Of a stretch of DNA of 64,000 nt, positions 1 to 63,822 are shown one piece after another. The stretch lies in assembly GCA_965228895.1 (NCBI GenBank), contig OZ245842.1:3072001-3136000 (forward strand), read 5' to 3'. Each line of letters opens with the position of its first letter. The first letter of the stretch is position 1. The stretch is from Alphaproteobacteria bacterium. Its GTDB lineage: Bacteria; Pseudomonadota; Alphaproteobacteria; SP197. The position numbers and the translations under genes are program-made. The notes under the pieces are model-generated. The model saw only the letters and a list, made by a program, of their open reading frames with translations, was not told the DNA's origin and made no database searches.

Positions 1-980
1 AGTTGGTTTGCCTCAGGACCGGTAACAGGCGCTTGCTCGATGTCCCTCGGCTGATCGTGGGTCTCATCCACCTTGTCGAGTTCATCAGAATCAAATCCTA
101 TCGCGTGATCTCGATAGCCCTGAATTGGCTCTGATCCGATTGGCTTGGGCGTTGTTACTTGAATGCTTTCCAAAATGGCCTGGCCCATCGTGTAGTGCTT
201 CTTCTTCTCCAGAAAAAACGTTTGATGTTGATATGGTTCAGCTAAGTTTCGCTCGACCTCTCCTTGAAACACCAAAACCCTAATCGTAGCGATGCAAACG
301 GCGTTTGGGCCTACCTCCTGGACGCGCTGCACGATGCCGTTGAAAGTTTCTTCCGGCACGTAAAACTCAAACCACAAGTCACCGGCTTGGCACTGATCGG
401 CCCAGCTCCATTTGAGAACATCGTCATCAACAAAGCCGACAACACCCACTCGGTGGCCATCAATTGCGTGGATGCTAATTGTACCTTTTCCCGACCGAGA
501 AAAACCTGTTGGGGGCTCCCCTCCATCCACAAGCAGGCTCAGCCCTCTATCGTCTTCCAGCGAGCATTTGCCGCGAATGAAGCGCACTCGGCCGCGATCA
601 GGAACGCGGAATCGCTTGTTGAATACATTAACGCGTTGCTCGCGCTCCTTGGCATCCTCCTCAGTTTCTTCTACACCCTCAAAGATCGGTCTCTCACTTA
701 TGAGATCAACAAACTTTTCCCGCTCGTCCTCCGATTTGTTCTCGTCCGCACCGGGTGGTTTTGAGCGGGTGAGGTCGGCCTTTAGATCAGAGCTAGATTC
801 ATTCTCCAAGACCTTAAAGGAATCTGCGATTTGGACGTCATACATACAAACGAATAGAAGTCGCCATTCGGCATACCAATCGAAAGGGCGCTTTCCTTCC
901 TCCCAGTATTCGATGAAATGAAAGTCGTTTTTCTTTTCGAGCCGCTTCCTAAAGTCTGACTTTTGAGTCTCAGCCGCCAT
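1..980 (-). CDS. hypothetical protein (>326 aa, runs off left edge), island cargo
   Basis: Manual translation: ATG at 980 preceded by GGAGG; frame MAAETQKSDFRKRLEKKNDFHFIEYWEEGK... has no stop down to base 1. Absent from ORF track because the stop lies outside the window. Lower GC than backbone. Confidence 0.8.
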   Translation of the reverse strand, partial: MAAETQKSDFRKRLEKKNDFHFIEYWEEGKRPFDWYAEWRLLFVCMYDVQIADSFKVLENESSSDLKADLTRSKPPGADENKSEDEREKFVDLISERPIFEGVEETEEDAKEREQRVNVFNKRFRVPDRGRVRFIRGKCSLEDDRGLSLLVDGGEPPTGFSRSGKGTISIHAIDGHRVGVVGFVDDDVLKWSWADQCQAGDLWFEFYVPEETFNGIVQRVQEVGPNAVCIATIRVLVFQGEVERNLAEPYQHQTFFLEKKKHYTMGQAILESIQVTTPKPIGSEPIQGYRDHAIGFDSDELDKVDETHDQPRDIEQAPVTGPEANQ

Positions 981-1091
981 CGCGAATCGCCTCCACGCGT
1001 AGTGCCTGGCCCTAGTTTAGAGTTCAAGCGGCTTGGCGAAAGCATCGATCTAACTGCAGGCCATCCGGAGCGCTCGACAGAGCCGGTCTTG

Positions 1092-1150
1092 GTGTCCGCC
1101 TTGGGTCATAAGCAGACTTCGATTGAGCTGAAGCATCATGTCTGCTCTTT
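1092..1150. repeat. palindromic element resembling the alphaproteobacterial repeat that translates as MSALGQKRT
   Basis: GTGTCCGCCTTGGGTCATAAGCAGACT followed by CATGTCTGCT; AGCAGAC/GTCTGCT inverted pair; translates VSALGHKQT. Confidence 0.45.
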
Positions 1151-1651
1151 GGTTGTTTCCCGACGTGTTCGCAGGATGAGTTTTTTGTCTTCGAACGACC
1201 GCCGCTCCGAGGTGTCGGCTTGGCGGGTGCGACCCTACTCCATGGATCGACTTTGTTAGTATGAGTTCGTGTCCTTGCCGGCGATTAACCGATAACGTCG
1301 ATCAGCAACCGAATCTGTTTTGTCGTGCGCGTCAGTTTCGATGACGAAGCACGGGGTCTGATATCTTGCCTCAGCACGTCAAGATGTCTGAAAGGAGTTC
1401 TGGGTCGAACTTTGACGCATGCCGAGTTCAAACCGTGTCACGACAGCCATACATGTTGCCGGATTTCTTTCCAGACGATACTAAATCTACTAATCGTCAG
1501 CGACTTTGCGTCAGTGACTTGACACGGTCGGCGGTACTGAACAACGTCATTGCGTGCTGGTGGGGCTAGGTCGGCCACCGAACGGCGCGACGCTCATCCC
1601 GCGCCTGCTCTGCCAGCTTTCGTTTGAATGAGCACATGATCGAGCAACAAC

Positions 1652-2320
1652 ATGACCATGATGACGGACCTGATCGTAGATTCGGGCGGCGCTCCGCATG
1701 TTCTATTGCTAGCTCTGGAGGAAGAGCGCTCAGCAATTGGCCGACCGGACATCTCCGCGCCCGGGGTGGCAATGACATATGGGTGGCTGCCTCGGGCGAC
1801 CGTGACAGCGTTCGACGGCGTCTTCATCGATGCCGGAACCGTCTTGTTCCTTGACCGCGAGCTCGAGGACAAAATCGCGCGCGTCGTGGCGGCGATAGCC
1901 GACGGCACCGATACGCCCGCCCTTCGCGCCCACTTGGTCGCGCTCGAGGCGCAGAAGGCCGAGCTGGCGAGCTCGGTCGGGCCCGACGAGCCGGACGCCG
2001 GCGACGTCGCCCTAATGCCCGACCTTGCCAAGCGCTACCGCGCCAAGGTCGCTATGCTCGAGCAGGCCTTGACCGAGGACCCACGCACGCGCGCCGGCGC
2101 GGCCGAGGAGATCCGCGAGCTCGTCGACTCCATAACGGCAATGCCACGCAACGAGCCCGCGCAATGGGATCTCAAGCTGACCGGCCGTCTCGAAGCGATT
2201 CTGGCGCTCGCTGCTGGAACGCTCGGCGAACGCCGGCACGGTACACAGCGCGAACATGATCGAAAAGGTGTGATAGCGAGTGCGTCCCCAGGGGGACTCG
2301 AACCCCCGTTTTCGGCGTGA
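1652..2320 (+). pseudogene. C-terminal remnant of a large serine recombinase
   Basis: Coiled-coil tail KIARVVAAIADG..ALRAHLVALEAQKAEL..PDLAKRYRAKV..L..AL..AAEEIRELVDSI..P..LKLTGRLEAILALA typical of tRNA-targeting alphaproteobacterial serine integrases; no N-terminal catalytic domain; frame ends inside the antisense tRNA. Confidence 0.7.
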
Positions 2321-13179: not shown

Positions 13180-14067
13180 ATGGCCCAGTTACGGCTGCCG
13201 GCGCTGACGCCGGAAAGCAGTTTGAGCAACTATCTGCGCGAGATCCGGAAGTTTCCGATGCTCGAGCAGCAGCAGGAATTCCAGCTCGCCAAGCGCTGGC
13301 GCGAAGATGGTGACGTCGACGCCGCCCACGAACTGGTGACGAGCCATCTGAGGCTGGTTGCCAAGATCGCCATGGGTTACCGCGGCTATGGCCTGCCCCT
13401 GGCCGAGCTGATCTCCGAAGGCAATGTCGGCCTGATGCAGGCCGTCAAGCGCTTCGATCCCGATAAGGGCTTCCGCCTGGCGACCTATGCCATGTGGTGG
13501 ATCCGCGCGGCGATCCAGGAATACATCCTGCACTCGTGGTCGCTGGTGAAGATGGGCACGACGGCAGCCCAGAAGAAACTGTTCTTCAATCTGCGCAAGC
13601 TGAAAGGCCAGTTGCAGGCGATCGACGACGGCGACCTGCCGCCGGAAACGGTGACGGAGATCGCGACGCGCCTGGACGTGCCGGAACAAGACGTCGTCTC
13701 CATGAACCGGCGCCTGTCGAGCCCCGACCATTCGCTGAACGCGCCGCTGCAACAGGACGGCGACGGCGAATGGCAGGACTGGCTAGTCGACGAAAGCGAC
13801 AACCAGGAAGAGACGCTCGGCGACCGCGAGGAGTTGGAGTCGCGCCGCGCGCTCTTGGCCACCGCCATGGAGGCCTTGAACGAGCGCGAGCGCTATATTC
13901 TGGTCGAGCGCCGTCTGTCGGAAGAGCCGAAGACCCTGGAAGAGCTTTCCCAGGAGTACGGCATCAGCCGCGAGCGGGTGCGCCAGATCGAGGTGCGCGC
14001 GTTCGAAAAGCTGCAAAAGGCGGTGAAGAACGCGGCAGCCGAGCGCCGGCCGGTGCCCGCCGCCTGA
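13180..14067 (+). CDS. rpoH: RNA polymerase sigma-32 factor
   Basis: RpoH box QKKLFFNLRK, SHLRLV, RERVRQIE. Confidence 0.97.
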   Translation: MAQLRLPALTPESSLSNYLREIRKFPMLEQQQEFQLAKRWREDGDVDAAHELVTSHLRLVAKIAMGYRGYGLPLAELISEGNVGLMQAVKRFDPDKGFRLATYAMWWIRAAIQEYILHSWSLVKMGTTAAQKKLFFNLRKLKGQLQAIDDGDLPPETVTEIATRLDVPEQDVVSMNRRLSSPDHSLNAPLQQDGDGEWQDWLVDESDNQEETLGDREELESRRALLATAMEALNERERYILVERRLSEEPKTLEELSQEYGISRERVRQIEVRAFEKLQKAVKNAAAERRPVPAA

Positions 14068-14091
14068 GCGCTCTGTTCGAACAAGGAAATG

Positions 14092-14126
14092 CGGTCGGCC
14101 CGCGCCAGCTTGGTGCGGGCCGATCG
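14092..14126. terminator. hairpin between convergent rpoH and cytochrome b561
   Basis: CGGTCGGCCCGCGCCA-GCT-TGGTGCGGGCCGATCG. Confidence 0.65.
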
Positions 14127-14130
14127 TCTT

Positions 14131-14676
14131 CTAGGATGTCCGACCGACCATGCGCTTGAGTGTCGCGTCTTTGTCGATGACATGGTGTTTTAGCGCCGCC
14201 AGCACATGGACGACGATGAGGATGATCAGGATATCGGCGAGCCACTCGTGGATCTCGCCCGCGATGTCGTTGACCGATTTGCTTTCAGGCAGCGCCGGCA
14301 GGCTGAAAATACCGAAGAACGACACCGGGTGACCGCCTGTCGATGACAAGATGTAGCCGGAAATCGGCATGCCGAGAATGGCCAGCAACAAGGCCAAGTG
14401 AACAGCCTTGGCGGCGAGTTCCTGCCAGCGTGGTATGGTGGCGACATCATCAGGGAAGCGCCAGACGACACGCCACAAGAAACGCCAAAGGCCGTAGACC
14501 AGCACAAAGACGCCAATCGATTTGTGCAAATTGATCCACCAGGTGAGCTCTGGACCGCGCGGCAGATCATCCATGTAAAGACCGATCGCCAACATCGCGA
14601 TGATCGCGACCGCTATCACCCAGTGATTGACGATCGATACGCTGCCAAAGCGTTTTCCGACGTCTTTCATGGCCAC
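14131..14676 (-). CDS. cytochrome b561
   Basis: HW, HKSIG, H, HE, HV.AALKHH..DKD.TL.RM. Confidence 0.92.
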   Translation of the reverse strand: MAMKDVGKRFGSVSIVNHWVIAVAIIAMLAIGLYMDDLPRGPELTWWINLHKSIGVFVLVYGLWRFLWRVVWRFPDDVATIPRWQELAAKAVHLALLLAILGMPISGYILSSTGGHPVSFFGIFSLPALPESKSVNDIAGEIHEWLADILIILIVVHVLAALKHHVIDKDATLKRMVGRTS

Positions 14677-14742
14677 GGCAAATACCCCCCGGACGCTACA
14701 ATGGTCTTTAGAAACTAAGAAAAGCGCTCGGGGCCTGACCAG

Positions 14743-15360
14743 CTAAAACGAGACGACCATGCCCAACGACACGAAGTTCGAGGCATCGTCCACGCCGTTG
14801 ATCGTGCCAAAAATTCCGGAACGGTGCTGCAAACGACCAAGCAACGCGTAGTTCGGATAGTCGGGCAAGGCCAGCGTCAGTTCCAGGTTGAGCTGATTAA
14901 GGGTCTTCTGGCGGATGCCTGTCTTCTGGAACTCGAGCTGGGACTGACGGGTTGTGATGCTGGGACCGAGACCGACCGCCATCGTCGTGACGACGAAATG
15001 ATCCCACGGGAAATCGTGCACACGGCCATTCAGGGCGATGCCGAACTCGCCATACCGCTGCGAGCCGTAGTGCTGGCCATACATCGCCTCCAGCTCAAAC
15101 CAAAGATGATTGCCGAAACCGCCAATCCGACGCCGCAGCGCCGCGGCCAGGACGCGCTCTGAATTGCCATCGACATTGAAGAGTTGGCCAACAATGTCGC
15201 TGAAGCTGTCATTGGTGCCCTCGCCGCCAAACACCGCAACGGACCACTTGGGATCTTCGGCGTGACGCCAATCCCACAGATCGGCGCCGAGGCTGCTACC
15301 AGGCGCGGACATCCCGATCATGGCCGCAAGCACCGTAACGCGCAGACATGAACACACCAT
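14743..15360 (-). CDS. outer-membrane beta-barrel protein (PagL/acyloxyacyl hydrolase-like)
   Basis: Signal peptide, amphipathic strands, RLQHRSG..G..N motif, C-terminal Phe. Confidence 0.6.
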   Translation of the reverse strand: MVCSCLRVTVLAAMIGMSAPGSSLGADLWDWRHAEDPKWSVAVFGGEGTNDSFSDIVGQLFNVDGNSERVLAAALRRRIGGFGNHLWFELEAMYGQHYGSQRYGEFGIALNGRVHDFPWDHFVVTTMAVGLGPSITTRQSQLEFQKTGIRQKTLNQLNLELTLALPDYPNYALLGRLQHRSGIFGTINGVDDASNFVSLGMVVSF

Positions 15361-15463
15361 AAGGCGACTCCGCCAATGGATGACGCAGTCAGACCTACAC
15401 CGAAACGCGAGCGAAAAACAACGTCCTACGCGCGACGATAGATGTTAAGCAGGTGGCTCCGGC

Positions 15464-15751
15464 TCAGGGAGCCTCCGGACATGTGACGTTGAGGCAAGCC
15501 TCGCTGGCCGCCCGTTCTTCCTCAGGAAGCTGGCAGCAGATACCGTCTTCGCCGTCCTCGACCTCGATCTCCTCGACGATCTTTTCTTCCTTGAACTCGA
15601 TGACGACCTGATTGGTCGTTCGATCGACCGTTGACGGCGACACGCCGAACAGGCTCTGGGTCTCATCGGCGAATTGTGCATGGGCCAGGCTGGGCACCGC
15701 AAAGGCGAAAGCCGATATCAGCAACACTTGCCGTAACTTACGGAAACTCAT
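15464..15751 (-). CDS. small secreted acidic Cys-containing hypothetical protein
   Basis: Signal peptide ending AHA; CC..C..C at C-terminus; GGAG RBS. Confidence 0.65.
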   Translation of the reverse strand: MSFRKLRQVLLISAFAFAVPSLAHAQFADETQSLFGVSPSTVDRTTNQVVIEFKEEKIVEEIEVEDGEDGICCQLPEEERAASEACLNVTCPEAP

Positions 15752-15862
15752 GGCAAAACTCCGGCGCCCGACATGTTGGTCATGTCCTCTATATGGGTAT
15801 TATAGACACTAATGGCGACCACGCCGAAACGCGATCCGTTAACGTGTGCGTGCGGTCACACC

Positions 15863-16510
15863 TCAAGCGGCAGGCCCGGCAAACAACAGCAAATTTCCGT
15901 CAGGATCGACCACAACAAAGCCGCGGGCGCCCCAGGGCTCCTGTCTCAATGTCTGATGAAACGTGACCCCGGCTTGCTGATAGTCCAGGTAGAGCCGCTT
16001 GATCTGCGCCGCCGTCTCCACGGTCACCGTCGCCGACAACAAAGTCTCGCGCTGCCTGATATCGCCCATGAAGACCGGCTCTTTCACAAGCCGCAGGTTG
16101 AGCAGCGCAGCGTCGCGCCCGACTTGGCCGTAGAACGGCGGATCGCCATGGAGAAACGCGACCGAGAAGCCGAGTTTGTCGGTGTAAAATTCACACGCCG
16201 CCGCCATGTCGGAAACATAGAGCTGCGCCTCGATTGCACTGAGTACGGGATGCGAAACTGTCTTCGTGTCACGTTCTTTCATGTCTGACATTCCTGCCTT
16301 TAGCGCCTGCCAGGACTCGAAACCGCACTTATGCGCGACAAGCTCCTGCGCGTCGGCAAGCCTGAACGGTGCCTCGAGCACCTGCTTGTCACTCATGTGT
16401 CCGAAACGCGGTAGAGCAATCCTGATCTCTGCGGCGACGGGATAATAACGCTCGCGGTGCCAGCGCAGGACTTGTTTGGCTTGTTTACGAAGGTTCTCGA
16501 GATTCGGCAT
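15863..16510 (-). CDS. VOC/glyoxalase protein with N-terminal helical extension
   Basis: FYTDKLGF, PWGARGFVVVDPDGNLL; N-terminal PNLENLRKQAK..LADAQ..VA...GFESW. Confidence 0.85.
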   Translation of the reverse strand: MPNLENLRKQAKQVLRWHRERYYPVAAEIRIALPRFGHMSDKQVLEAPFRLADAQELVAHKCGFESWQALKAGMSDMKERDTKTVSHPVLSAIEAQLYVSDMAAACEFYTDKLGFSVAFLHGDPPFYGQVGRDAALLNLRLVKEPVFMGDIRQRETLLSATVTVETAAQIKRLYLDYQQAGVTFHQTLRQEPWGARGFVVVDPDGNLLLFAGPAA

Positions 16511-54457: not shown

Positions 54458-54569
54458 CGCCGTTTTCCCAGTAGACAGTCCCGACAATCGCAACAAGACA
54501 TTGACGCGGTGCGGCGGCGGTGCCACCGCTTCCCGTCACAGGTTTGGTGAGAGTTTCGCCTCTCTGCCG

Positions 54570-55058
54570 CTAAGGCAGGGCGAGCCTCTCAAGCCCCGTC
54601 TTATCCAGGCTCATCAACGTCGCGACCGCGTCGTCGCGCGCCGCGCCCAGGCGGTCGTAGAAGCGGTAGGCTTCGGCGTTCTCTACCCAGACTTCCCAGA
54701 AGACGGCCTGGCAGCCGAGATCGAGGGCGTGGCGGGCGACGCCGGCCATCAGCGCCTGGCCGATGCCTCTACCCTTGGTGTCCGGCCCGACCGAGAGATC
54801 GGCGAGGTAGAGTTTGCGCCGGCCGTCGTGAAGCTGGAGCGCGCGGGTCAGGACAGCGACACCGGCGACGTGTTTGTCCATCGTCGCAACCAGCATGTCG
54901 CACCAACGGCTCGGGCCGAAAGCGAGCGGGGCGAGCGTCTCGGGTGTCCAATCCGGCGGCTCGTCATCGACGTGTCGCGCCAAGTGAGCACCGAGCGCGA
55001 TGATGGTGGGCAGGTCGGCGCGGCGGGCGCGGCGAACGTTGGGCTGTGACTTGGTCAT
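54570..55058 (-). CDS. GNAT family N-acetyltransferase
   Basis: DLSV....KGRGIG, NAEA.RFY..LG. Confidence 0.87.
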   Translation of the reverse strand: MTKSQPNVRRARRADLPTIIALGAHLARHVDDEPPDWTPETLAPLAFGPSRWCDMLVATMDKHVAGVAVLTRALQLHDGRRKLYLADLSVGPDTKGRGIGQALMAGVARHALDLGCQAVFWEVWVENAEAYRFYDRLGAARDDAVATLMSLDKTGLERLALP

Positions 55059-55525
55059 GAGGCGCCCTCTCCTGCCAGATCCTTCGCCATATAGACGCGG
55101 GGGAAGCCGCGTTCGGTGCGGCGGTCGGTCTCGACATAGCCGCGCCGGGTGTAGATCTCGATGTTCTCGGTCATCATCTCGTGGGTGTAGAGGTCGAGGC
55201 GGTCGTGGCCGCGCCGGGCGGCCTCGGCCTCGGCGAAGTCCATCAGGCGGCGGCCGAGGCCCGAGCCCTGAGCTTCGGGCGCGACGGCGATGTTGTCGAA
55301 CAGGATCGTGCCGTCCGGCTTTTCGATCAGGACGACCACGCCGCTGATCGTCTGGCCATCGCGCGCGACATGGACGATGTGATCGGCGATGACGGCCGCA
55401 TAATCGTCCAGCATGGGCCCCGGTTTCGTGCCGATCCGCGCGATGTAGGGGGTATAGGCGGCATTGACCACCGCCGTGATGGCGGCGGCGTCCTCGGGTC
55501 TTGCTGGTGAAAGGGTCCACGTCAT
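55055..55525 (-). CDS. GNAT family N-acetyltransferase
   Basis: NIAVAPEAQGSGLG, LYTHE.MTEN..IY. Confidence 0.9.
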   Translation of the reverse strand: MTWTLSPARPEDAAAITAVVNAAYTPYIARIGTKPGPMLDDYAAVIADHIVHVARDGQTISGVVVLIEKPDGTILFDNIAVAPEAQGSGLGRRLMDFAEAEAARRGHDRLDLYTHEMMTENIEIYTRRGYVETDRRTERGFPRVYMAKDLAGEGAS

Positions 55526-55683
55526 GGCCCTAAGCCTATGCCGGAAGCGTGAAACGGGCCATGGCCGCCATGGTTGTCACCGGCCCGCCCGTCGACTAAG
55601 TAACAGGGAGCATTCAGAGACTGCCGCGTTGGGGCTTGGCCCCTGGGTCCAGCCCACGGCGGCCGCCTCATTAAGGAGATATC

Positions 55684-56292
55684 ATGGTTCAACTGCTGAT
55701 GCCCCAGGCGACTGCCGTCTGGCTGGTCGACAACACCACCCTTTCCTTTGGGCAAATCGCCGATTTCTGCGGCATGCATCCCTTGGAAATCCAGGCGATC
55801 GCCGACGGCGAGGTCGCCGTCAATATCGTCGGCCAGGACCCGGTGACCGGCGGGCAGTTGACGCCCGAAGAGGTCGCACGCTGCGAAAAGGACCCGGACG
55901 CCCGGCTCGAGATGCGCCTGCGCGAGGATCTGCCGCAACCCAAGCAGACCAAGAGCCGCTATACGCCGGTCTCCAAGCGCCAGGACAAGCCCGACGCGAT
56001 CGAGTTCCTGGTGCGCCGGTTCCCGCAGTTATCCGATGCCCAGATCATGCGCCTGGTCGGCACCACCAAGCAGACCATCAACGCGGTGCGCGAGCACACC
56101 CACAAGAACAGCGCCAACATCGTGCCCAAGGACCCGGTGCTGCTGGGCCTTTGCAGCCGCGACAAGCTGAACACGGAAATCGACAAGGCGAACGCCAAGG
56201 TCAAGGCCAAGGAATCGGCCATGGAAAAGGCGCGCGCCGAACTGGCCGCCCGCGACGAGGCGGAGATCCAGGCGGGCGACGTCTCGTCCTAG
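55684..56292 (+). CDS. trcR: DUF1013 cell-cycle transcription regulator TrcR
   Basis: LMP.ATAVWLVDNT.L.F.QIADFCG, RYTPVSKRQDKPDAI, DPV.LGLC. Confidence 0.92.
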   Translation: MVQLLMPQATAVWLVDNTTLSFGQIADFCGMHPLEIQAIADGEVAVNIVGQDPVTGGQLTPEEVARCEKDPDARLEMRLREDLPQPKQTKSRYTPVSKRQDKPDAIEFLVRRFPQLSDAQIMRLVGTTKQTINAVREHTHKNSANIVPKDPVLLGLCSRDKLNTEIDKANAKVKAKESAMEKARAELAARDEAEIQAGDVSS

Positions 56293-56304
56293 GATAGCCG
56301 TTCG

Positions 56305-57414
56305 ATGGTTGGCCGCGTTAACGACGGCCAGCCCCCTGCCACCGACGGCATGGGCGGCAAGGGCTATTACGACGACCATTCCAGCGCCCAGAAGGACGGC
56401 ATCCGCAGTCAGGAGGCACGTCTGCGCGGTGCCGTGCGCGCGCTCGACCTGAATGGTCAGGAACTGCGCGTCATCGACTACGGCTGCGGGCCCGGCCGCA
56501 ATTCCATGACCGCGTTTCATACGGTCCTGGCCGAAGTGCGGCAGCGCCGGCCCGACATTCATGTTGTCGCCATGCACAACGATCAGATCGGCAACGATTG
56601 GAACGATCTGTTCGCCAACGTGCGCGGACCCGACGGTTATCTGGACGACATCGAGACCATTCGTGTCGAGGCGGCGGTCGGCAGTTTCTTTGGTCCCGTG
56701 GCAAGCCCAGGCGTGATCGACTTCGGTATGTCGTTTGCCGCCGCCCATTGGCTCGATAGCGCGGTCCGGATGCCCGCGCCCGGCAGCCTCTTTTTCTGCG
56801 ATCTGCCGGAACCGGTCAGAAGTGACATCGCGGCAATGGCCGGGCGCAACTGGTCGGTGTTCCTGAAACAGCGTGCCCGCGAACTCAAACCCGGCGGCAT
56901 GCTGGTGATCGACATGCTGTCGGCGGTCGAGGACGCGAGCGACCCGAGCGGCGTCGCGGCCGCCGGCGCCGGTCTCTATCGCGCCATGGGAGAGATCGCC
57001 AACGGCCTTGCCGCGGAAGGCCGCATCGATCGCGGCGCCCTCGATAACTTCATCTTCCCGGTCTACTTCCGTCTGACCGGTGAGATACGCGCGCCGCTTG
57101 TCGATGACGCCGAACTGAAGAACGCCTTCGAGGTCATCGAACTGAGCAACGACCTTCTACCGATGCCGACCGAGGAAGCGCTCAAGCAGACAGGCGACGC
57201 GGCGACCTATGCCAAGGCCTATGCCGGTTTTGCCCGCGCGTTCGCCGAAGCGACGTTGAATGCCGGCCTGTTCACGCTATCGACAGCGAACGAGACCGAG
57301 GCCAAGGCCCTGGCCGATACGTTTTTCCAACGCCTTGAAACCCTGTTCGCGACCGAACCCGACAAACACCGCTTCGACCACCGTGTCGCCACGTTGGTGT
57401 TGAGACGTCTGTGA
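56305..57414 (+). CDS. SABATH-family (Methyltransf_7) SAM-dependent carboxyl methyltransferase, copy 1
   Basis: MGG.GYY..HS..Q, DYGCGPGRNS, NDQ..NDWNDLF, GSFF, SF...HWL, RARELKPGG, FPVYFR. Confidence 0.88.
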   Translation: MVGRVNDGQPPATDGMGGKGYYDDHSSAQKDGIRSQEARLRGAVRALDLNGQELRVIDYGCGPGRNSMTAFHTVLAEVRQRRPDIHVVAMHNDQIGNDWNDLFANVRGPDGYLDDIETIRVEAAVGSFFGPVASPGVIDFGMSFAAAHWLDSAVRMPAPGSLFFCDLPEPVRSDIAAMAGRNWSVFLKQRARELKPGGMLVIDMLSAVEDASDPSGVAAAGAGLYRAMGEIANGLAAEGRIDRGALDNFIFPVYFRLTGEIRAPLVDDAELKNAFEVIELSNDLLPMPTEEALKQTGDAATYAKAYAGFARAFAEATLNAGLFTLSTANETEAKALADTFFQRLETLFATEPDKHRFDHRVATLVLRRL

Positions 57415-58526
57415 CGTCGGGAAGCGGCATAGGCGATCGCGATGCCTCGGCCACCGAAGGTATGGGCGGCGACGGTTACTACGACAACCATTCGCAGGTT
57501 CAAAGAGGCACGGTCATCGGACAAGCCGAGCGATTGCGCAACGCCGTGCGCCAACTCGAGCTGACGGCGGGTGGACTGCGTATCGTTGATTACGGCTGCG
57601 GTCCCGGCCGCAACTCCATGGCTGCGTTCGATACGGTGTTAAACGAAGTCGGGAAACATCGGCCCGACGTACCGGTCGTCGCCGTGCACAACGATCAGGC
57701 CGGCAATGACTGGAACGACCTGTTCGCCAACATCCGAGGGCCCGATGGGTATCTGCGCGATCACCCCTCCGTCCGCGTCGAGGCGTCCGTCGGTAGTTTC
57801 TATGAACCCGTTGCTAGCGCCGGCCAGGTTGATCTCGGTATGTCGTTCATGGCCGTTCACTGGCTCAACGGCACCGTCCGCATGTCGTCGCCCGGCACAC
57901 TGTTCTTCTGCGATGTCGAAGGACCAGCGCGAAAGGAACTTGCCGAGCGCGCCGAGCGCGACTGGGCAGCGTTCTTTACCGCGCGGGCCAGCGAGATAAG
58001 GTCCGGCGGCTGGCTGGTCATCGAGAGCCTGTCGTCAGTACCGGATCCCGACGACCCCAGCGGCTTGCTGGCGGCGGGTCGATGGAACTATCGCGCCTGC
58101 TACCGGATCGCCAAAGCGATGGCTGAGGAAGGTCTGATCCAAAACGATCTGCTCGATCATTTCGTCTTCCCCGTCTACTTCCGTGAAGAGCACGAGGTGT
58201 GCGCGCCGTTCGAGCGCGATGGTGATCTTAGAGACGTTTTCGAGATCGTCGAGGTTGTCAATGAGCTCTACGCGACGCCGTTCGAAGAAACCTTCAAACA
58301 GGACGGCGATGCCGCGGCGTATGCATCGGCCTATGTCGGATACGTCCGCGCTTACTCAGAGTCCACGCTGCGCAGCAGCCTATTCGGGGGATTGGCAAAC
58401 AGCGTAGACGAGGTCAACGCGTTGACAGAGACGTTCTACGATCGCCTGGAACAACTGTATCGAGACGAACCGGGCCGCCACCCATCGGAAACCCAGTCGA
58501 TGACCCTGGTGCTGCGGCGGCGATGA
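57411..58526 (+). CDS. SABATH-family methyltransferase, copy 2
   Basis: Same motifs; GTGA start/stop overlap with copy 1. Confidence 0.88.
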   Translation: MTSGSGIGDRDASATEGMGGDGYYDNHSQVQRGTVIGQAERLRNAVRQLELTAGGLRIVDYGCGPGRNSMAAFDTVLNEVGKHRPDVPVVAVHNDQAGNDWNDLFANIRGPDGYLRDHPSVRVEASVGSFYEPVASAGQVDLGMSFMAVHWLNGTVRMSSPGTLFFCDVEGPARKELAERAERDWAAFFTARASEIRSGGWLVIESLSSVPDPDDPSGLLAAGRWNYRACYRIAKAMAEEGLIQNDLLDHFVFPVYFREEHEVCAPFERDGDLRDVFEIVEVVNELYATPFEETFKQDGDAAAYASAYVGYVRAYSESTLRSSLFGGLANSVDEVNALTETFYDRLEQLYRDEPGRHPSETQSMTLVLRRR

Positions 58527-59638
58527 CCACAGCCGCCGACGACAAACCGCCACGCACACAGGCCACCGACGGGATGGGCGGTCAGGGCTTTTACGACGGC
58601 CACTCGCGCGAGCAGGCCAAGGTGATCAGGGGTGAAGCCGATCGCCTGCACCACGTGGCGGCGCAGCTTGATGCGTCGGGCCCGGAACTGCGCATCGTCG
58701 ACTATGGTTGCGGGCCCGGCCGCAATTCGATGAAGGCGTTTCACACAGTGCTCGACACGGTGCGGCGGAACAAAACCGACTTGCCCATCGTCGCGGTCCA
58801 CAACGATCAGGTCAGCAACGACTGGAACGATCTTTTCGCCAACGTCAGGGGACCGGGCGGTTATCTGCGCGGCGATCCCTACGTTCGTGTCGAAGCCTCG
58901 ATCGGCAGCTTCTACGACAGTGTCGCAAGCGATGGCACCGTCGACCTCGGCATGTCGTTTGTTGCGGCCCACTGGCTTAGCAACGTTGTCCGCCTGTCCA
59001 CACCGGGAACGCTGTTCTTCGCCGATCTGACCGGGCAGGCGCGCCAAGAGATGGCCGCTCATGCCGACAAGGACTGGACATCATTCCTGCGTCATCGCGC
59101 GCAGGAGATCAAACCGGGCGGCTGGCTCGTTGTGCACGTGTTTTCGTCGGTGCCGGACACTGATGATCCCAGCGGCTTGCGGGCCGCGGGCCGCCATCTG
59201 TTCCGTGCGTTCTGGCGGATCGCCGATGGCATGGCCGGCGACGGTATGATCGACCGGGACCTGCTCGACAGGTTCGTCTTCCCCGTTTACTTCCGCGAAG
59301 AAGATGAGGTGCGCGCACCGCTTGAACGCGAGCAGGACCTTTGCCAAGCGTTCGACATTGTCGAACTCAGCAGCGAACTCATCCCTTCTCCCGCCCTGGA
59401 AGAGCTTGATCGAACCGGCGACGTCAGCGCTTATGCGGTTTCCTATGCCCAACACTGCCGGGCCTTTACGGAGTCGGCGTTCAGCAATGGCTTGTTTGCG
59501 GTGACGGCGTCGAGCCCGGCCGAAGCCGATCGTCTGGTCGATGACTTCTATGGTCGGCTCGAAACCCTGTTTCACGACGAACCCCGCGCGCATGACTCCG
59601 AACTCCAATCGATGACACTGGTGCTGAGGCGGCGGTAG
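58523..59638 (+). CDS. SABATH-family methyltransferase, copy 3
   Basis: Same motifs; ATGA overlap with copy 2. Confidence 0.88.
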   Translation: MTTAADDKPPRTQATDGMGGQGFYDGHSREQAKVIRGEADRLHHVAAQLDASGPELRIVDYGCGPGRNSMKAFHTVLDTVRRNKTDLPIVAVHNDQVSNDWNDLFANVRGPGGYLRGDPYVRVEASIGSFYDSVASDGTVDLGMSFVAAHWLSNVVRLSTPGTLFFADLTGQARQEMAAHADKDWTSFLRHRAQEIKPGGWLVVHVFSSVPDTDDPSGLRAAGRHLFRAFWRIADGMAGDGMIDRDLLDRFVFPVYFREEDEVRAPLEREQDLCQAFDIVELSSELIPSPALEELDRTGDVSAYAVSYAQHCRAFTESAFSNGLFAVTASSPAEADRLVDDFYGRLETLFHDEPRAHDSELQSMTLVLRRR

Positions 59639-59670
59639 TCTAGAACCGGCAAAAGGGAGCGCAGACATCC

Positions 59671-60777
59671 ATGGCAACCGGCACCGACAATGGCAGCAAA
59701 GCGACCGACGGCATGGGCGGCGAAGGCTATTACGACAGCCATTCGGCGATCCAGGCGGGCGCCGTCGAACAACAGGCGGCACGACTGCGCCGCGCCGTCG
59801 CGGCGCTGAATCTCGACGGGCCGGAACTCACCATCATTGATTACGGTTGCGGTCCCGGCCGCAATTCGATGGCGGCGTTTCGCGCGGTGCTCGACGAGGT
59901 TCGCCAGCGCCGGGCCGACCTGCCCATCGTCGCCGTGCACACCGATCAGATCAGCAACGATTGGAACGACCTGGTCGCGAACATCCAGGGGCCTGGCGGT
60001 TATCTGAACGATGTCGAGGGTGTGCGCGTCGTTGTTTCGGCCGGCAGCTTTTTCGACACCGTCGCCAGCGATCATTCGATCGACCTCGGCATGTCGTTCA
60101 TGGCCTCACACTGGCTCGACGGTCCCATCAGCCTGCCCTCACCCGGCACGCTCTTCTTCGCCGACATGACGGGCACGGCACGCGAGGAGGTCGCGGCCAT
60201 CGCCGACGAGCACTGGACGCGCTTCATGCACCACCGTGCGCGCGAGGTCAAACCGGGCGGCTGGCTTGTCTTCGAAGCGATGTCGGCGATCAAAGACCCC
60301 ACCGACCGGAGCGGCCTCGCCGCCGGCGGCCACCGTCTTTACCGCGCCTTCTGGCAAATCGCCGACGGCATGGCGCAGGAGGGGCTGGTCGAGCGCGCCC
60401 ATCTCGACGCCTTTGTCTTCCCGATCTATTTCCGCGAGCTCCATGAGATCCGTGCGCCGCTGGAACGCGAAGCCGACCTGAAGGCCGCGTTCGAGATCGT
60501 CGAATTGGAAAGCGAGCTGATCCCCAACCCCTATGTGGAGGCGTGGCGCCGCGACGGTGACGATACGGCTTATGCCAAAGCCTATGCCGCATTCGCGCGC
60601 GGCTTTTCGGAGTCCGCCTTCCGCAACGGGCTGTTCAACCTGTCGGCCAATTCCGACAACAGCGCCGATGCCCTGACCGAGACGTTCTACACGCGCCTTG
60701 AAGACGTGTTCCGCGCCGAACCCGGCGACCACATCTTCGACAACCACTCGATGACGCTGGTGCTAAGGCGGCGTTAA
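59671..60777 (+). CDS. SABATH-family methyltransferase, copy 4
   Basis: Same motifs; RBS AAGGGAG. Confidence 0.88.
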   Translation: MATGTDNGSKATDGMGGEGYYDSHSAIQAGAVEQQAARLRRAVAALNLDGPELTIIDYGCGPGRNSMAAFRAVLDEVRQRRADLPIVAVHTDQISNDWNDLVANIQGPGGYLNDVEGVRVVVSAGSFFDTVASDHSIDLGMSFMASHWLDGPISLPSPGTLFFADMTGTAREEVAAIADEHWTRFMHHRAREVKPGGWLVFEAMSAIKDPTDRSGLAAGGHRLYRAFWQIADGMAQEGLVERAHLDAFVFPIYFRELHEIRAPLEREADLKAAFEIVELESELIPNPYVEAWRRDGDDTAYAKAYAAFARGFSESAFRNGLFNLSANSDNSADALTETFYTRLEDVFRAEPGDHIFDNHSMTLVLRRR

Positions 60778-61628
60778 ACGTACGCCATATCGTACGCGTC
60801 CTGCCGCCTGACCACGTGACCGATCGACGGCAGCGGGAAGTGGATGGTCATGACCTTCGTGTCGGTCTCACAGTGTGTATCGAGAAAACGCCGGCGCGTC
60901 GCGCGTGATTGTTCGATGTCGTAGTCGAAATGCGGACTCCAGTCGGGTTGGGCGAGCTGCAGGGGGCTGTGAATGAGGTCGCCGGTGACGACGCCGTGGG
61001 CCGATCCCGATTTCAGGTGGACGGCGACGTGGCCCGCCGTGTGGCCCAGCGTCGGTTCGAGCCACACCTCGTCGTCCAGCGCGTAGTCGGTGTCGACCAG
61101 CACGGCCTGCTTGGCGTCGAGCACCGGCTGCACGTTTTCGGCGAAGACGGCCGTGCCCTCGTCAGCGGCGGCGGCGACTTCGTCACGTGCCAGGATGTAT
61201 TTGGCGTTGGGAAATGTCGGCACCCAACGCCCGTCGACGAGACGCGTGTTCCAGCCTGAGTGGTCGAGATGCAGGTGCGTACAGAAGACGAAGTCGATCT
61301 CTTCGGGCGCAACACCGGTCGCCACGAGATTGCGCAGCCAGGTCTCGTCGCGCCGGTCCTGCCATGCAGGAATGCCGTCATAGGACTTGCGGCAGCCAAC
61401 GCAGGTGTCGATCAGGATGGTGTGGTGGCGCGTGCGCACCAGATAAGACTGGACGGTCAGCAGCATCTCGCCGGTCTTGGGATCGAGCGCGTCGGGTTCC
61501 AGCCAGGACCGGTAGGGTTCGACCGCGTCGGGCGTCGCCTCGTGAAAGAAGTCCGGCAGCACGAACGGCGCCTTCTCCATTTCGATGACGCGATCGATGG
61601 CGATCTCGCCCAAATTCAGCGTTGTCAA
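60774..61628 (-). CDS. MBL-fold metallo-hydrolase
   Basis: THLHLDHSGWN, GHTAGH, GDLIH, HFP; TTG start with GGGGAGGGG. Confidence 0.9.
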   Translation of the reverse strand: MTTLNLGEIAIDRVIEMEKAPFVLPDFFHEATPDAVEPYRSWLEPDALDPKTGEMLLTVQSYLVRTRHHTILIDTCVGCRKSYDGIPAWQDRRDETWLRNLVATGVAPEEIDFVFCTHLHLDHSGWNTRLVDGRWVPTFPNAKYILARDEVAAAADEGTAVFAENVQPVLDAKQAVLVDTDYALDDEVWLEPTLGHTAGHVAVHLKSGSAHGVVTGDLIHSPLQLAQPDWSPHFDYDIEQSRATRRRFLDTHCETDTKVMTIHFPLPSIGHVVRRQDAYDMAYV

Positions 61629-61677
61629 AGGCCCCTCCCCTGACGCGTTGTCGAAGCGATGATGCTGTCGTCGTCGC

Positions 61678-62262
61678 TCAGTCGGCCTCACCGCCCTCTG
61701 CGGTTTCCGGTAGCATGTGTCGTTTGATGAGCCCGATCTGGCACATGCCGAACGCCATGGTCAGTAAGACGATGCCGAAGGTCTTGAACCCGACCCAGAT
61801 ATCGGTCGACTGGGTGCGCCACACCACCTCGTTAATACCGGCCATGACCAGAAAGAAGATCGCGAAGCGCATCGAAAGCTTGCGCCAGCCGTCATCGTCC
61901 AATTGCAGCGCCGCGCCCATCAGCGGTTTCAGCAACGACTTGCCCATCAGCAGGCCGCCGAACAGCACGGCAGCAAACAGCGCCTGGATAATTGTCGGCT
62001 TGAGTTTGATGAAGGTCTCGTCGTTCAGCCACAAGGTCAGTCCGCCGAAGATGCCGACGATGATTGCGGTGACCAGCGGCAGCATCGGGATGTGGCGCGC
62101 GATAGCGTAGGAAAGCGCCAGGGCGATGCCGGTCGCGGTCATCAAGGCGGCGGTCGCCACCATCAGATCGCCGAGCACATAGGCAACGACAAAGACGACC
62201 AGCGGGCCGTATTCGGTGACCGGCTTCAGCCAGGCCGGTTGTTTTGGTTTTTCTTGCGTCAT
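61678..62262 (-). CDS. ispZ: intracellular septation protein A (YciB)
   Basis: FGGLTLWLND..FIK.KPTI, NE.VWR, WV.FK.FG. Confidence 0.93.
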   Translation of the reverse strand: MTQEKPKQPAWLKPVTEYGPLVVFVVAYVLGDLMVATAALMTATGIALALSYAIARHIPMLPLVTAIIVGIFGGLTLWLNDETFIKLKPTIIQALFAAVLFGGLLMGKSLLKPLMGAALQLDDDGWRKLSMRFAIFFLVMAGINEVVWRTQSTDIWVGFKTFGIVLLTMAFGMCQIGLIKRHMLPETAEGGEAD

Positions 62263-62318
62263 GGTCCGCACAATATTGGAGACTGGGGCGTCGCGGGCAA
62301 GGATTGATCAGCCCACGA

Positions 62319-63245
62319 TTACGTCACCCGAAGGTTGGGCATGATCTCCTGGCACCACAGCGACAGGTGGTCGGCGACGAAGAAGCCCGGTGATCCGCCG
62401 TGTTCGTCTGGCCTGGTGGCCGCCCACCAGACGATGTCGCATGTCTTGCCGTCGAGCGGCAGAACGGCCACCTGTCCGCCGCGCCGCAGGGTTTCAGCGT
62501 CACGCGCGCCGACCAGGCTAATACCCAGGCCCGCCGCGACATAAGCCAGCACGCCGTCGGCCGATGCCGCCTTCAGCACCTGCGCCGGGGCAACGTCGGC
62601 GTCCGACAACAACGCCTGATGGGCAATGCTGCGCTCGAAGACCGGGGCGGCACTGACATAGGTTTCGCCTGCGATCATATCCGCATCGAATGCCTGTTGC
62701 GCCGCCAGCGCGTGATCGGCAGGCACGATGGCGACCAGGGTGTCGCGAAAGAGTTCGAAGTTCTGCCGGCCCGCGGGTTTTGCCGCGCCGTGACCGATGA
62801 CGACATCGGCTGTACCGCGCGCCAGCGCCTCGGCTGGTGTGTGCAGCGCGGCAGGCACCAGGTCGATCGTGATCTCACCGTTACGTTCGGCCAAGAACCT
62901 GACGAAGGACGGCAGCCAGGACGGGCACAGGCGATCGGCAACGCCGACCCTGACGACATAATGGATGCCGCCGGCGAAACGGTGGACGTCGTGCTCGGCG
63001 CGCGCCAGTTCGTCCAGCACGCGCCGCGCCGACGGCAGCAGGCGTTCGGCGGACGGCGTCATGCGCAGGCGCTTACCCCGCCCCTTGACGAACAACGGCG
63101 CCCCCAGCCTGCGCTCAGCCTCGCGCAGGCGGTAGGTCAGCGCCGGTTGGGTGACGCCAAGATCCTGGGCCGCGTTGTTCAGGCTGCCGCTGTCGGCAAC
63201 CGCGACGAGCAGCTCCAGATGGGGCACATCGAGCGCAGTGGGCAT
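62319..63245 (-). CDS. LysR family transcriptional regulator
   Basis: GSL..AA..LGVTQPALT HTH. Confidence 0.92.
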   Translation of the reverse strand: MPTALDVPHLELLVAVADSGSLNNAAQDLGVTQPALTYRLREAERRLGAPLFVKGRGKRLRMTPSAERLLPSARRVLDELARAEHDVHRFAGGIHYVVRVGVADRLCPSWLPSFVRFLAERNGEITIDLVPAALHTPAEALARGTADVVIGHGAAKPAGRQNFELFRDTLVAIVPADHALAAQQAFDADMIAGETYVSAAPVFERSIAHQALLSDADVAPAQVLKAASADGVLAYVAAGLGISLVGARDAETLRRGGQVAVLPLDGKTCDIVWWAATRPDEHGGSPGFFVADHLSLWCQEIMPNLRVT

Positions 63246-63255
63246 ACCCCACGTT

Positions 63256-63270
63256 ATCAGGAATACTGAT
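63256..63270. promoter_or_regulatory. LysR recognition box (T-N11-A)
   Basis: ATCAG-GAATA-CTGAT perfect inverted repeat in an AT-rich divergent promoter. Confidence 0.7.
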
Positions 63271-63357
63271 TATTTCTTATTAAATTTCGATTAGAAACAG
63301 CGAGGCTGCCGGCCCTAGCTTTCGTTCCAACGGCGGAACCGAAAGCTGGAAGTCATC

Positions 63358-63822
63358 ATGACGGCTACCCTTACCATTGACCAAGCGAGCGCCGAAGACG
63401 CCGCCGTTGTCGCCGATTTTGTCACCCGACTGCTGGCCGAGCTCTTCGACAGCGTGCGCGACGCCGCCGAGATGGAAGCGACCGCGCGCAATCTCTTGGC
63501 GCGCCCGGACCTGTTCACGGCGCTCATCGCGCGGCGCGACGACCGGCCGGTCGGGGTTTTGACTCTGGCGACCTGCGTTTCAGTCTATGCCGGCGGACAG
63601 TTCGGCGAAATTGCCGAGTTGTGCGTCAACCCAGACGAACGCTCAGTCGGGATCGGGGAAGCGCTGATCGCGGCCGCTGCCGCGTATGGGCGTCAACAGG
63701 GATGGTCGCGCCTGGAAGTCGGCGCGCCGCCGGCTGATCGATGGGCGCGCACCGTGGCGTTCTATGAGCGCCACGGCTTTACCGAAATCGGCCCGCGCCT
63801 GGGTCTGACGCTCAACACCTGA
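63358..63822 (+). CDS. GNAT family N-acetyltransferase
   Basis: ELCVNP..RS.GIG, FYERHGF. Confidence 0.88.
   Translation: MTATLTIDQASAEDAAVVADFVTRLLAELFDSVRDAAEMEATARNLLARPDLFTALIARRDDRPVGVLTLATCVSVYAGGQFGEIAELCVNPDERSVGIGEALIAAAAAYGRQQGWSRLEVGAPPADRWARTVAFYERHGFTEIGPRLGLTLNT

Follow-up and report, generated by a model that had tools for sequence, protein, structure and literature searches.

Methylation of small-molecule carboxyl groups changes how volatile acids are, what charge they carry and how they pass membranes, and in plants it controls hormones and scent. The nearest characterised enzyme to the genes treated here is a bacterial fatty acid O-methyltransferase (FAMT; PDB entries 5f2k, 5f2n and 5f2o) of the SABATH family from Mycobacterium marinum, which reportedly prefers medium-chain and 3-hydroxy fatty acids. 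In our study, a stretch of 64,000 nucleotides from an alphaproteobacterial genome (contig OZ245842.1 of assembly GCA_965228895.1, positions 3,072,001 to 3,136,000; hereafter the window) was found to carry a tandem array of four SABATH genes, MT1 to MT4, at 56305-60777. The reading we favour, with a probability of about 0.6 as judged from the sequences, is that the products of the locus are carboxyl O-methyltransferases which are expressed together and differ in the acids they accept. The novelty lies in four old SABATH subfamilies joined in one translationally coupled operon of a bacterium, in a clade without a characterised member.

A preliminary description of this DNA had called the bacterial members of the family sporadic and barely studied. 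The first part agrees with their presence in 11 of 400 and 4 of 400 sampled genomes (see below), whereas the second is too strong, since at least one bacterial member, a fatty acid O-methyltransferase, has been characterised biochemically and structurally according to PMC10193983. FAMT resembles MT1-MT4 in being a bacterial PF03492 protein, of 368 residues, in which the S-adenosylmethionine (SAM) motifs, a PVxxR motif and, at the carboxylate site, Gln and Trp are found as well. On the other hand, it is about 30% identical to them over the aligned part, it carries Gln-Trp where MT1-MT4 have His-Trp as in plants (Gln-Trp is found in 4 of 146 clade members), it is without the D..DPSG loop that is invariant in MT1-MT4, and it has been described as a single gene and not as part of an array. 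The plant carboxyl methyltransferases SAMT (1m6e), GjGAMT (8wwq), LAMT (6c8r) and IAMT (3b5i) share with the array the Pfam family, the order of the motifs and the Gln/His/Trp triad, whereas their E-values are 1e-13 to 1e-16 and MT1-MT4 fall into a separate bacterial clade.

Two further systems are comparable in arrangement or in chemistry. Tandem SABATH clusters of plant genomes, for example soybean (PMC12019346), also place family members side by side; these are recent tandem duplicates which are transcribed separately, whereas the array joins four old subfamilies in a translationally coupled operon. The mycobacterial OPCMT-like enzymes share with the array bacterial small-molecule carboxyl methylation and the presence of several paralogues per genome, but they belong to another family with less than 12% identity to SABATH, are monomeric and hold the substrate by a Thr/Tyr pair, as described in PMC10193983, and they are an analogue only of the array enzymes. 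No bacterial SABATH array was found in the literature searched (most subscription journals lay outside its coverage), and to this extent the earlier view of an undescribed system stands; the enzyme family itself is already known. The locus reveals no new kind of system. MT1-MT4 are SABATH members by every sequence feature examined.

The four genes are adjacent, intact and co-oriented and encode paralogues of 368-371 residues, as was seen from the open reading frame (ORF) list and from reads of the junctions (Table 1). At the MT1/MT2 junction (ctGTGAcg) the GTG start of MT2 overlaps the stop of MT1 by 4 nt, and at the MT2/MT3 junction (cgATGAcc) the ATG start of MT3 overlaps the stop of MT2 by the same length, both read directly. 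MT3 and MT4 are separated by a spacer of 32 nt, in which GGGAG, 11 nt 5' of the MT4 ATG, is the predicted ribosome-binding site of MT4 itself. Owing to the 4-nt overlaps and the 32-nt spacer, MT1-MT4 are probably co-expressed, which agrees with the operon proposed in the preliminary description. A sigma-70 scan of 55000-62500 gave 0 promoter-like sites against 1.2 expected. In the same region 11 terminator-like matches were found against 6.2 expected, all of them inside genes, and these were left unused as evidence; an Rfam search across 54500-63500, covering the array and its flanks, gave no match to an RNA family.

The protein identity among MT1-MT4 is 52-60% in pairwise comparison. In DNA comparison the likeness between copies is 60-74% and the repeat periods are 1112, 1112 and 1139 nt, which indicates that the four copies are old and not a recent repeat. 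The third-position GC content is 0.72-0.82 in all four genes, and the regional GC content of about 0.63 at the array is the same as in the remaining window. Lower values were observed at window positions 1-2000 (0.547) and 14001-16000 (0.584), the usual range in the window being 0.60-0.67. No difference was seen over 55600-60900 in a contig from run X1, from which this DNA possibly comes. A contig of 19,185 nt from run X2, which belongs to another study and bears another organism label, covers the whole of 55600-60900 with 227 differences and 2 gaps, and it spans the same four genes at about 96% identity. The array is no assembly artefact, as had been expected from the start.

Assignment of the four proteins to the SABATH family was borne out by profile searches. 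Against Pfam Methyltransf_7 (PF03492), for which the cut-off is 29.8 bits, they score 90-110 bits and cover positions 13-335 (MT1), 14-333 (MT2 and MT3) and 14-300 (MT4) of the 335 in the profile; no other Pfam family rises above its cut-off for MT1-MT4 and no NCBIfam model matches them. A profile of the four copies matched 11 distinct sequences in the PDB, all of them SABATH enzymes. FAMT is the top match (E 3.4e-25, aligned over 22-328), and plant N- and O-methyltransferases, CkTcS, XMT and DXMT included, come next at 3e-16 to 4e-6. The label "plant-type", which had been given to the array, is therefore misleading, the nearest solved relative being bacterial FAMT (3e-25, against 3e-16 or weaker for plants). 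Neighbours in the ESM Atlas fall into PF03492 clusters throughout, mostly bacterial, and a profile of 79 relatives searched against a collection of 1.84 billion gave 2813 representative clusters at E <= 0.001, of which 1546 were at <= 1e-10 and 330 at <= 1e-30.

The motifs quoted earlier are all found in the alignment of the four copies (MGGxGxYDxHSxxQ, DYGCGPGRNSM, (N/T)DQxxNDWNDL, GSF(F/Y), MSFxAxHWL and RAxExxxGGxLV), with the correction that FPVYFR is exact in MT1-MT3 and reads FPIYFR in MT4. The motif-by-motif match to the plant enzymes is likewise seen in alignment with the sequences of the solved structures, and at the level of sequence this alignment spans both the Rossmann core and the alpha-helical cap domain. 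Residues D58, D93, D98, S127 and F128 (numbered after MT1) lie in the SAM motifs and presumably contact SAM, as is reported for the SAMT structure. They are invariant in MT1-MT4, align with the corresponding motifs of FAMT, GjGAMT and CkTcS, and are kept in 145, 146, 146, 145 and 146 rows, respectively, of the 146-row alignment of the wider clade.

Gln29, His148 and Trp149 are invariant in all four array copies and align with Gln35, His157 and Trp158 of GjGAMT (chain residues 30, 152 and 153, the chain numbering being offset by 5). In the wider clade Gln is kept in 145 of the 146 rows, His in 142 (the other 4 have Gln, as in FAMT) and Trp in 146. In GjGAMT the three residues form a strictly conserved hydrogen bond network holding the substrate's carboxyl group, as stated in PMC13205638, and Gln and Trp are described likewise as holders of the substrate carboxyl in SABATH enzymes in PMC10193983. 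The N-methyltransferase CkTcS has Thr at the column where MT1-MT4 keep Gln29; such loss of Gln, typical of the SABATH N-methyltransferase branch (caffeine/theacrine synthase type), is absent in MT1-MT4. From the intact triad and SAM motifs we infer that all four are active carboxyl O-methyltransferases.

Monophyly of the four had been proposed as a sign of expansion in situ, and the phylogeny speaks against it. A FastTree tree of 151 rows was calculated, leaving out proteins outside 340-420 residues, matches of less than 300 profile positions and rows identical to included ones, and a second tree was calculated with the quick method of IQ-TREE from 57 chosen rows. In both trees MT1-MT4 stand in four separate, well-supported groups. 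MT1 falls together with lone genes of other genomes (loci L015-L018), in a clade of 55 rows with FastTree, and MT4 with the lone genes of loci L019-L030, in one of 47 rows with FastTree. MT2 is grouped with G001_b and G002_b, from two sister genomes (G001 and G002) of the same genus as the window's own genome (G000), and with P0044, P0004 and P0006, P denoting proteins found mainly in metagenomes. MT3 groups only with P0002 (91%) and P0003 (79%). The best tree holding the 19 array-borne sequences as one clade was rejected by the approximately unbiased (AU) test, with a log-likelihood lower by 241 and p of 2e-51; the orthologue set for this test was picked after the first tree, and the single-clade hypothesis had been stated beforehand. 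By these phylogenies the array consists of four old subfamilies standing side by side and not of copies expanded in situ. It is either an old tandem set, reduced to one gene in most lineages, or a set of genes gathered together.

Selection on the genes was estimated from Nei-Gojobori ratios of non-synonymous to synonymous substitution (dN/dS) between G000, G001 and G002. The ratios are 0.18-0.20 for the orthologues of MT1, 0.16-0.20 for MT2 and 0.14-0.16 for MT4, with 0.04-0.10 and 0.08-0.17 for trcR and the metallo-beta-lactamase (MBL)-fold gene of the flanks as comparison genes. The orthologues of MT1, MT2 and MT4 are under purifying selection. Further, 39 of 369 positions are fixed within the orthologue groups and different between them. 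The substrate contacts of GjGAMT in the aligned part are Tyr154, Pro222, Gln239, Met267 and Phe269, and Tyr154 and Gln239 map to the group-specific positions 145 and 225. This is suggestive of differences in the acceptor pocket among the four subfamilies.

G000 holds five members of the family, four in the array and one by itself at a distance of 2.3 Mb. The relatives of the source organism are marine metagenome-assembled genomes (MAGs). Of 40 relatives, 36 are without the family, two belonging to another genus have one member, and the two from the genus of G000 have three in tandem and a lone one. In an even sample of the class the family is found in 11 of 400 other genomes and in a second sample, overlapping in part with the first, in 4 of 400, with one copy each in both. 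At the loci from named genomes one copy is present within up to 8 kb of flank in 39 of 41, two of which (L052 and L054) contain a single gene split over two frames. L014 has three copies, but the proteins are identical to rows already counted and it is no independent case. A locus of a Rhodospirillales MAG (L030:5812-11365) has two SABATH genes of different subfamilies, preceded by asparaginase and two SnoaL-like genes and followed by a Methyltransf_2 O-methyltransferase gene, and is possibly a small methylation cluster. In metagenomes there are at least 34 loci, at least 22 of them with a family match, and all are single copy among the matches listed. Several proteins come from metagenome contigs of equal size (P0085, P0102, P0105 and P0110 from 7148 nt, P0003, P0046 and P0079 from 7421 nt, P0002 and P0089 from 1.64 Mb), and this equality of length may point to further arrays among them. 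Arrays are found almost only in this genus, with single copies elsewhere among the genomes searched.

Table 1. Genes of the SABATH array and its immediate neighbours, with positions in the window
Feature	Coordinates	Strand	Length (aa)	Assignment
trcR	55684..56292	+		Transcriptional cell-cycle regulator; Pfam TrcR PF06242, 190.9 bits
MT1	56305..57414	+	369	SABATH-family SAM-dependent methyltransferase, subfamily A; PF03492, 95.4 bits
MT2	57411..58526	+	371	SABATH-family methyltransferase, subfamily B; GTG start; PF03492, 100 bits
MT3	58523..59638	+	371	SABATH-family methyltransferase, subfamily C; ATG start; PF03492, 110.5 bits
MT4	59671..60777	+	368	SABATH-family methyltransferase, subfamily D; PF03492, 90.2 bits
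MBL-fold hydrolase	60774..61691	-		Lactonase/esterase-like; PF00753, 66.8 bits; convergent with MT4

A single copy of the upstream neighbour trcR was present in each of the relatives searched (15 of 15). This conserved core gene is possibly co-transcribed with the array, in which it has no functional part. Its TAG is followed by 12 nt and then by the MT1 ATG (56290-56307); the gap between the two genes is 12-13 nt in G000 and G002 and 196 nt in G001, so that the array may be co-transcribed with trcR, though not as a fixed feature. The order ruvCAB, yebC, quinone-oxidoreductase-like gene, GNAT gene and trcR is kept among the relatives in the family. Downstream of trcR, G003, G005 and G007 carry unrelated genes (for a thiamine pyrophosphate enzyme or an old-yellow-enzyme-like reductase), and G000, G001 and G002 carry the array, the convergent MBL-fold gene, yciB/ispA, a LysR gene and a GNAT gene. 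In G001 and G002 the array consists of the orthologues of MT1, MT2 and MT4 without MT3, and a tblastn search of these two genomes with MT3 matched only the three other types. In G002 the orthologues of MT2 and MT4 overlap by 4 nt.

At the opposite flank of the array, the TAA of MT4 and the stop of the MBL-fold gene share the palindrome TTAA at 60774-60777, and in G002 the ends of the two genes overlap by 14 nt. The MBL-fold protein is far below the cut-offs of the NCBIfam lactonase models (64.7 against 360), and its best PDB matches are organophosphorus hydrolase (4le6/4o98, E 1e-19), with the acyl-homoserine lactone (AHL) lactonase 4zo2 also matched. Most relatives have one MBL copy of about 54% identity, and G000, G001 and G002 have that copy together with an extra paralogue, which is 86% alike among the three and is found only in these 3 array-bearing genomes of the 25 searched. 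A link between the MBL-fold gene and the array is only possible. In G001 the MBL-fold gene is parted from the last methyltransferase gene by an inserted ORF of 404 residues with predicted membrane segments (L056:3933-5147), which lies in a stretch of lower GC content (0.56).

Near the lone homologues no recurring partner was seen at 11 loci of the close clade and 11 loci of a clade of 40% identity; their neighbours include GST twice, PntAB twice and hydrolases from unrelated families. A keto-acid TRAP transporter was unseen beside the lone homologues, where the sole match was a single gene for DctM in L026, some 4 kb upstream. In a soil MAG (L042:6367-9592) a lone family member lies directly 3' of pntB, and the C-terminal 52 residues of PntB are repeated at the start of the next ORF, which looks like an insertion that duplicated the 3' end of pntB. 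This locus suggests that SABATH genes move as single-gene cassettes.

The lone fifth SABATH gene of G000 (L062:6848-7996 on G000:C1, about 2.3 Mb off; PF03492 121.8 bits) shares 25-31% identity with MT1-MT4. It is divergent from a gene of an MFS transporter and adjoins a malic enzyme gene. Its product keeps Gln, has Ala-Phe in place of His-Trp and GSM in place of GSF, and the same is seen in the G001 and G002 orthologues. With this alteration of the acceptor site, the fifth copy may not methylate a carboxylate. In Gloeobacter violaceus Gll1939 (P0154) and its G. morelensis orthologue a CMAS domain (cyclopropane fatty acid synthase-like) is fused to the SABATH domain; only these two Gloeobacter proteins among those listed have the fusion, which is a weak hint, by analogy, at lipid substrates. 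A search for longer proteins of the family gave one EukProt protein only, and both P0143 and P0180 combine several domains and have Pfam scores of a plant-like kind. P0001, a protein of 631 residues from a metagenome contig of 9684 nt, passes from an MT2-like part (78%, residues 1-344) to an MT3-like one (80%, 373-625), owing either to a natural fusion or to a frameshift.

The favoured reading can be stated as follows. The four products of the locus would be cytoplasmic SABATH enzymes that use SAM to O-methylate the carboxyl groups of small molecules, each binding SAM in a class I Rossmann domain and holding the carboxylate of the free acid by the Gln/His/Trp triad. Methyl transfer would proceed by proximity and desolvation, giving the methyl ester and S-adenosylhomocysteine. 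The four old subfamilies, differing in the acceptor pocket, would act in parallel on different acids, and all four would be made from a single transcript on which MT1, MT2 and MT3 are translationally coupled. In other genomes subfamilies A and D are represented by lone genes, which indicates that each enzyme would be functional by itself. Carboxylate O-methylation, a separate substrate for each copy and co-transcription are all three what we infer. For the substrates one would think first of fatty acids, aliphatic or hydroxylated, or of other small acids, as the nearest characterised enzyme is the mycobacterial FAMT and, more weakly, as the Gloeobacter CMAS-SABATH fusion may indicate.

Several points weigh against this reading. 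The guess at fatty acids is a weak analogy in view of the identity of about 30% with FAMT over the aligned part. The array is flanked in the window by housekeeping genes, and neither these nor the neighbours of the lone homologues point to a substrate. The differences in the acceptor pocket are read from the alignment, in which 2 of 5 mappable pocket positions are group-specific, a proportion not statistically distinct from the background of 39/369. Purifying selection was seen for three of the four copies. Moreover, the SABATH N-methyltransferases show that the fold can switch its acceptor atom.

This switch is the ground for one of the alternatives, in which the four proteins would be N-methyltransferases acting on pyridine or amino acids to give betaine-type osmolytes, for instance trigonelline or homarine. 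The fold includes CkTcS, XMT and DXMT, and the marine origin of the relatives would suit osmolytes, but the triad Gln is kept in all four where CkTcS has Thr, no transporter or precursor-pathway genes lie beside the array, and no bacterial precedent, homarine included, was found in the literature searched; we consider it improbable. Somewhat less improbable, though still unlikely, is a sequential pathway as in caffeine synthesis, which the preliminary description had offered and in which several carboxyls or sites of one molecule would be methylated in turn. The tight translational coupling would fit such a pathway, and so would the fact that three genomes of the genus have inherited the array as a block. 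However, members of subfamilies A and D stand alone at 39 of 41 genome loci and at least 22 metagenome loci (all those listed with a match), G001 and G002 hold three copies without MT3, no biosynthetic genes lie near the array, and the four copies are no recent duplicates of one enzyme. Pairing of the paralogues, so that the array would encode the subunits of a heteromeric enzyme, has about the same small chance as N-methylation. Equal synthesis would be favoured by the stop/start overlaps, the MT2-like and MT3-like parts are joined in P0001, and plant SABATH enzymes are homodimers according to PMC10193983. Nevertheless, every catalytic motif is kept in all four, lone subfamily members exist in other genomes, and P0001 may be explained by a single frameshift, as upstream of the MT3 start its frame continues open over 86 codons.

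Still more doubtful is a module in which the array would act with the adjacent MBL-fold esterase or lactonase to control how far acid signals or toxins are methylated. The extra MBL paralogue is present only in the 3 array-bearing genomes, its stop overlaps that of MT4, and its solved relatives are lactonases and esterases, but the gene is convergent and hence not co-transcribed with the array, a foreign ORF of 404 residues separates the two in G001, and the hydrolases near the lone homologues are from unrelated families and could be there by chance. A more far-reaching form, which we hold to be hardly less doubtful, would be a write-and-erase system for acid signals, in which four specialised methyltransferases, possibly as heterodimers, would turn exogenous acids into membrane-permeant or volatile methyl esters and the MBL-fold hydrolase would undo this; candidate acids would be algal or host compounds of the auxin, salicylate or jasmonate type, or fatty-acid signals. 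If true, such a system would let a marine alphaproteobacterium tune its chemical cross-talk with a eukaryotic partner. The view that the locus is an assembly artefact or a set of decaying redundant copies has practically no chance, being refuted by the contig of the other study at about 96% identity, the intact frames, the dN/dS of 0.14-0.20 and the likeness of 60-74% between copies at the DNA level.

Bacterial SABATH enzymes are rare and, beyond one mycobacterial enzyme, scarcely characterised. Four diverged and probably co-expressed members, together with a fifth copy of altered acceptor site, in one genome of cultivable size form a compact test set. This set bears on the substrates of the bacterial SABATH enzymes and on the evolution of their specificity, and it is a possible source of esterifying biocatalysts.

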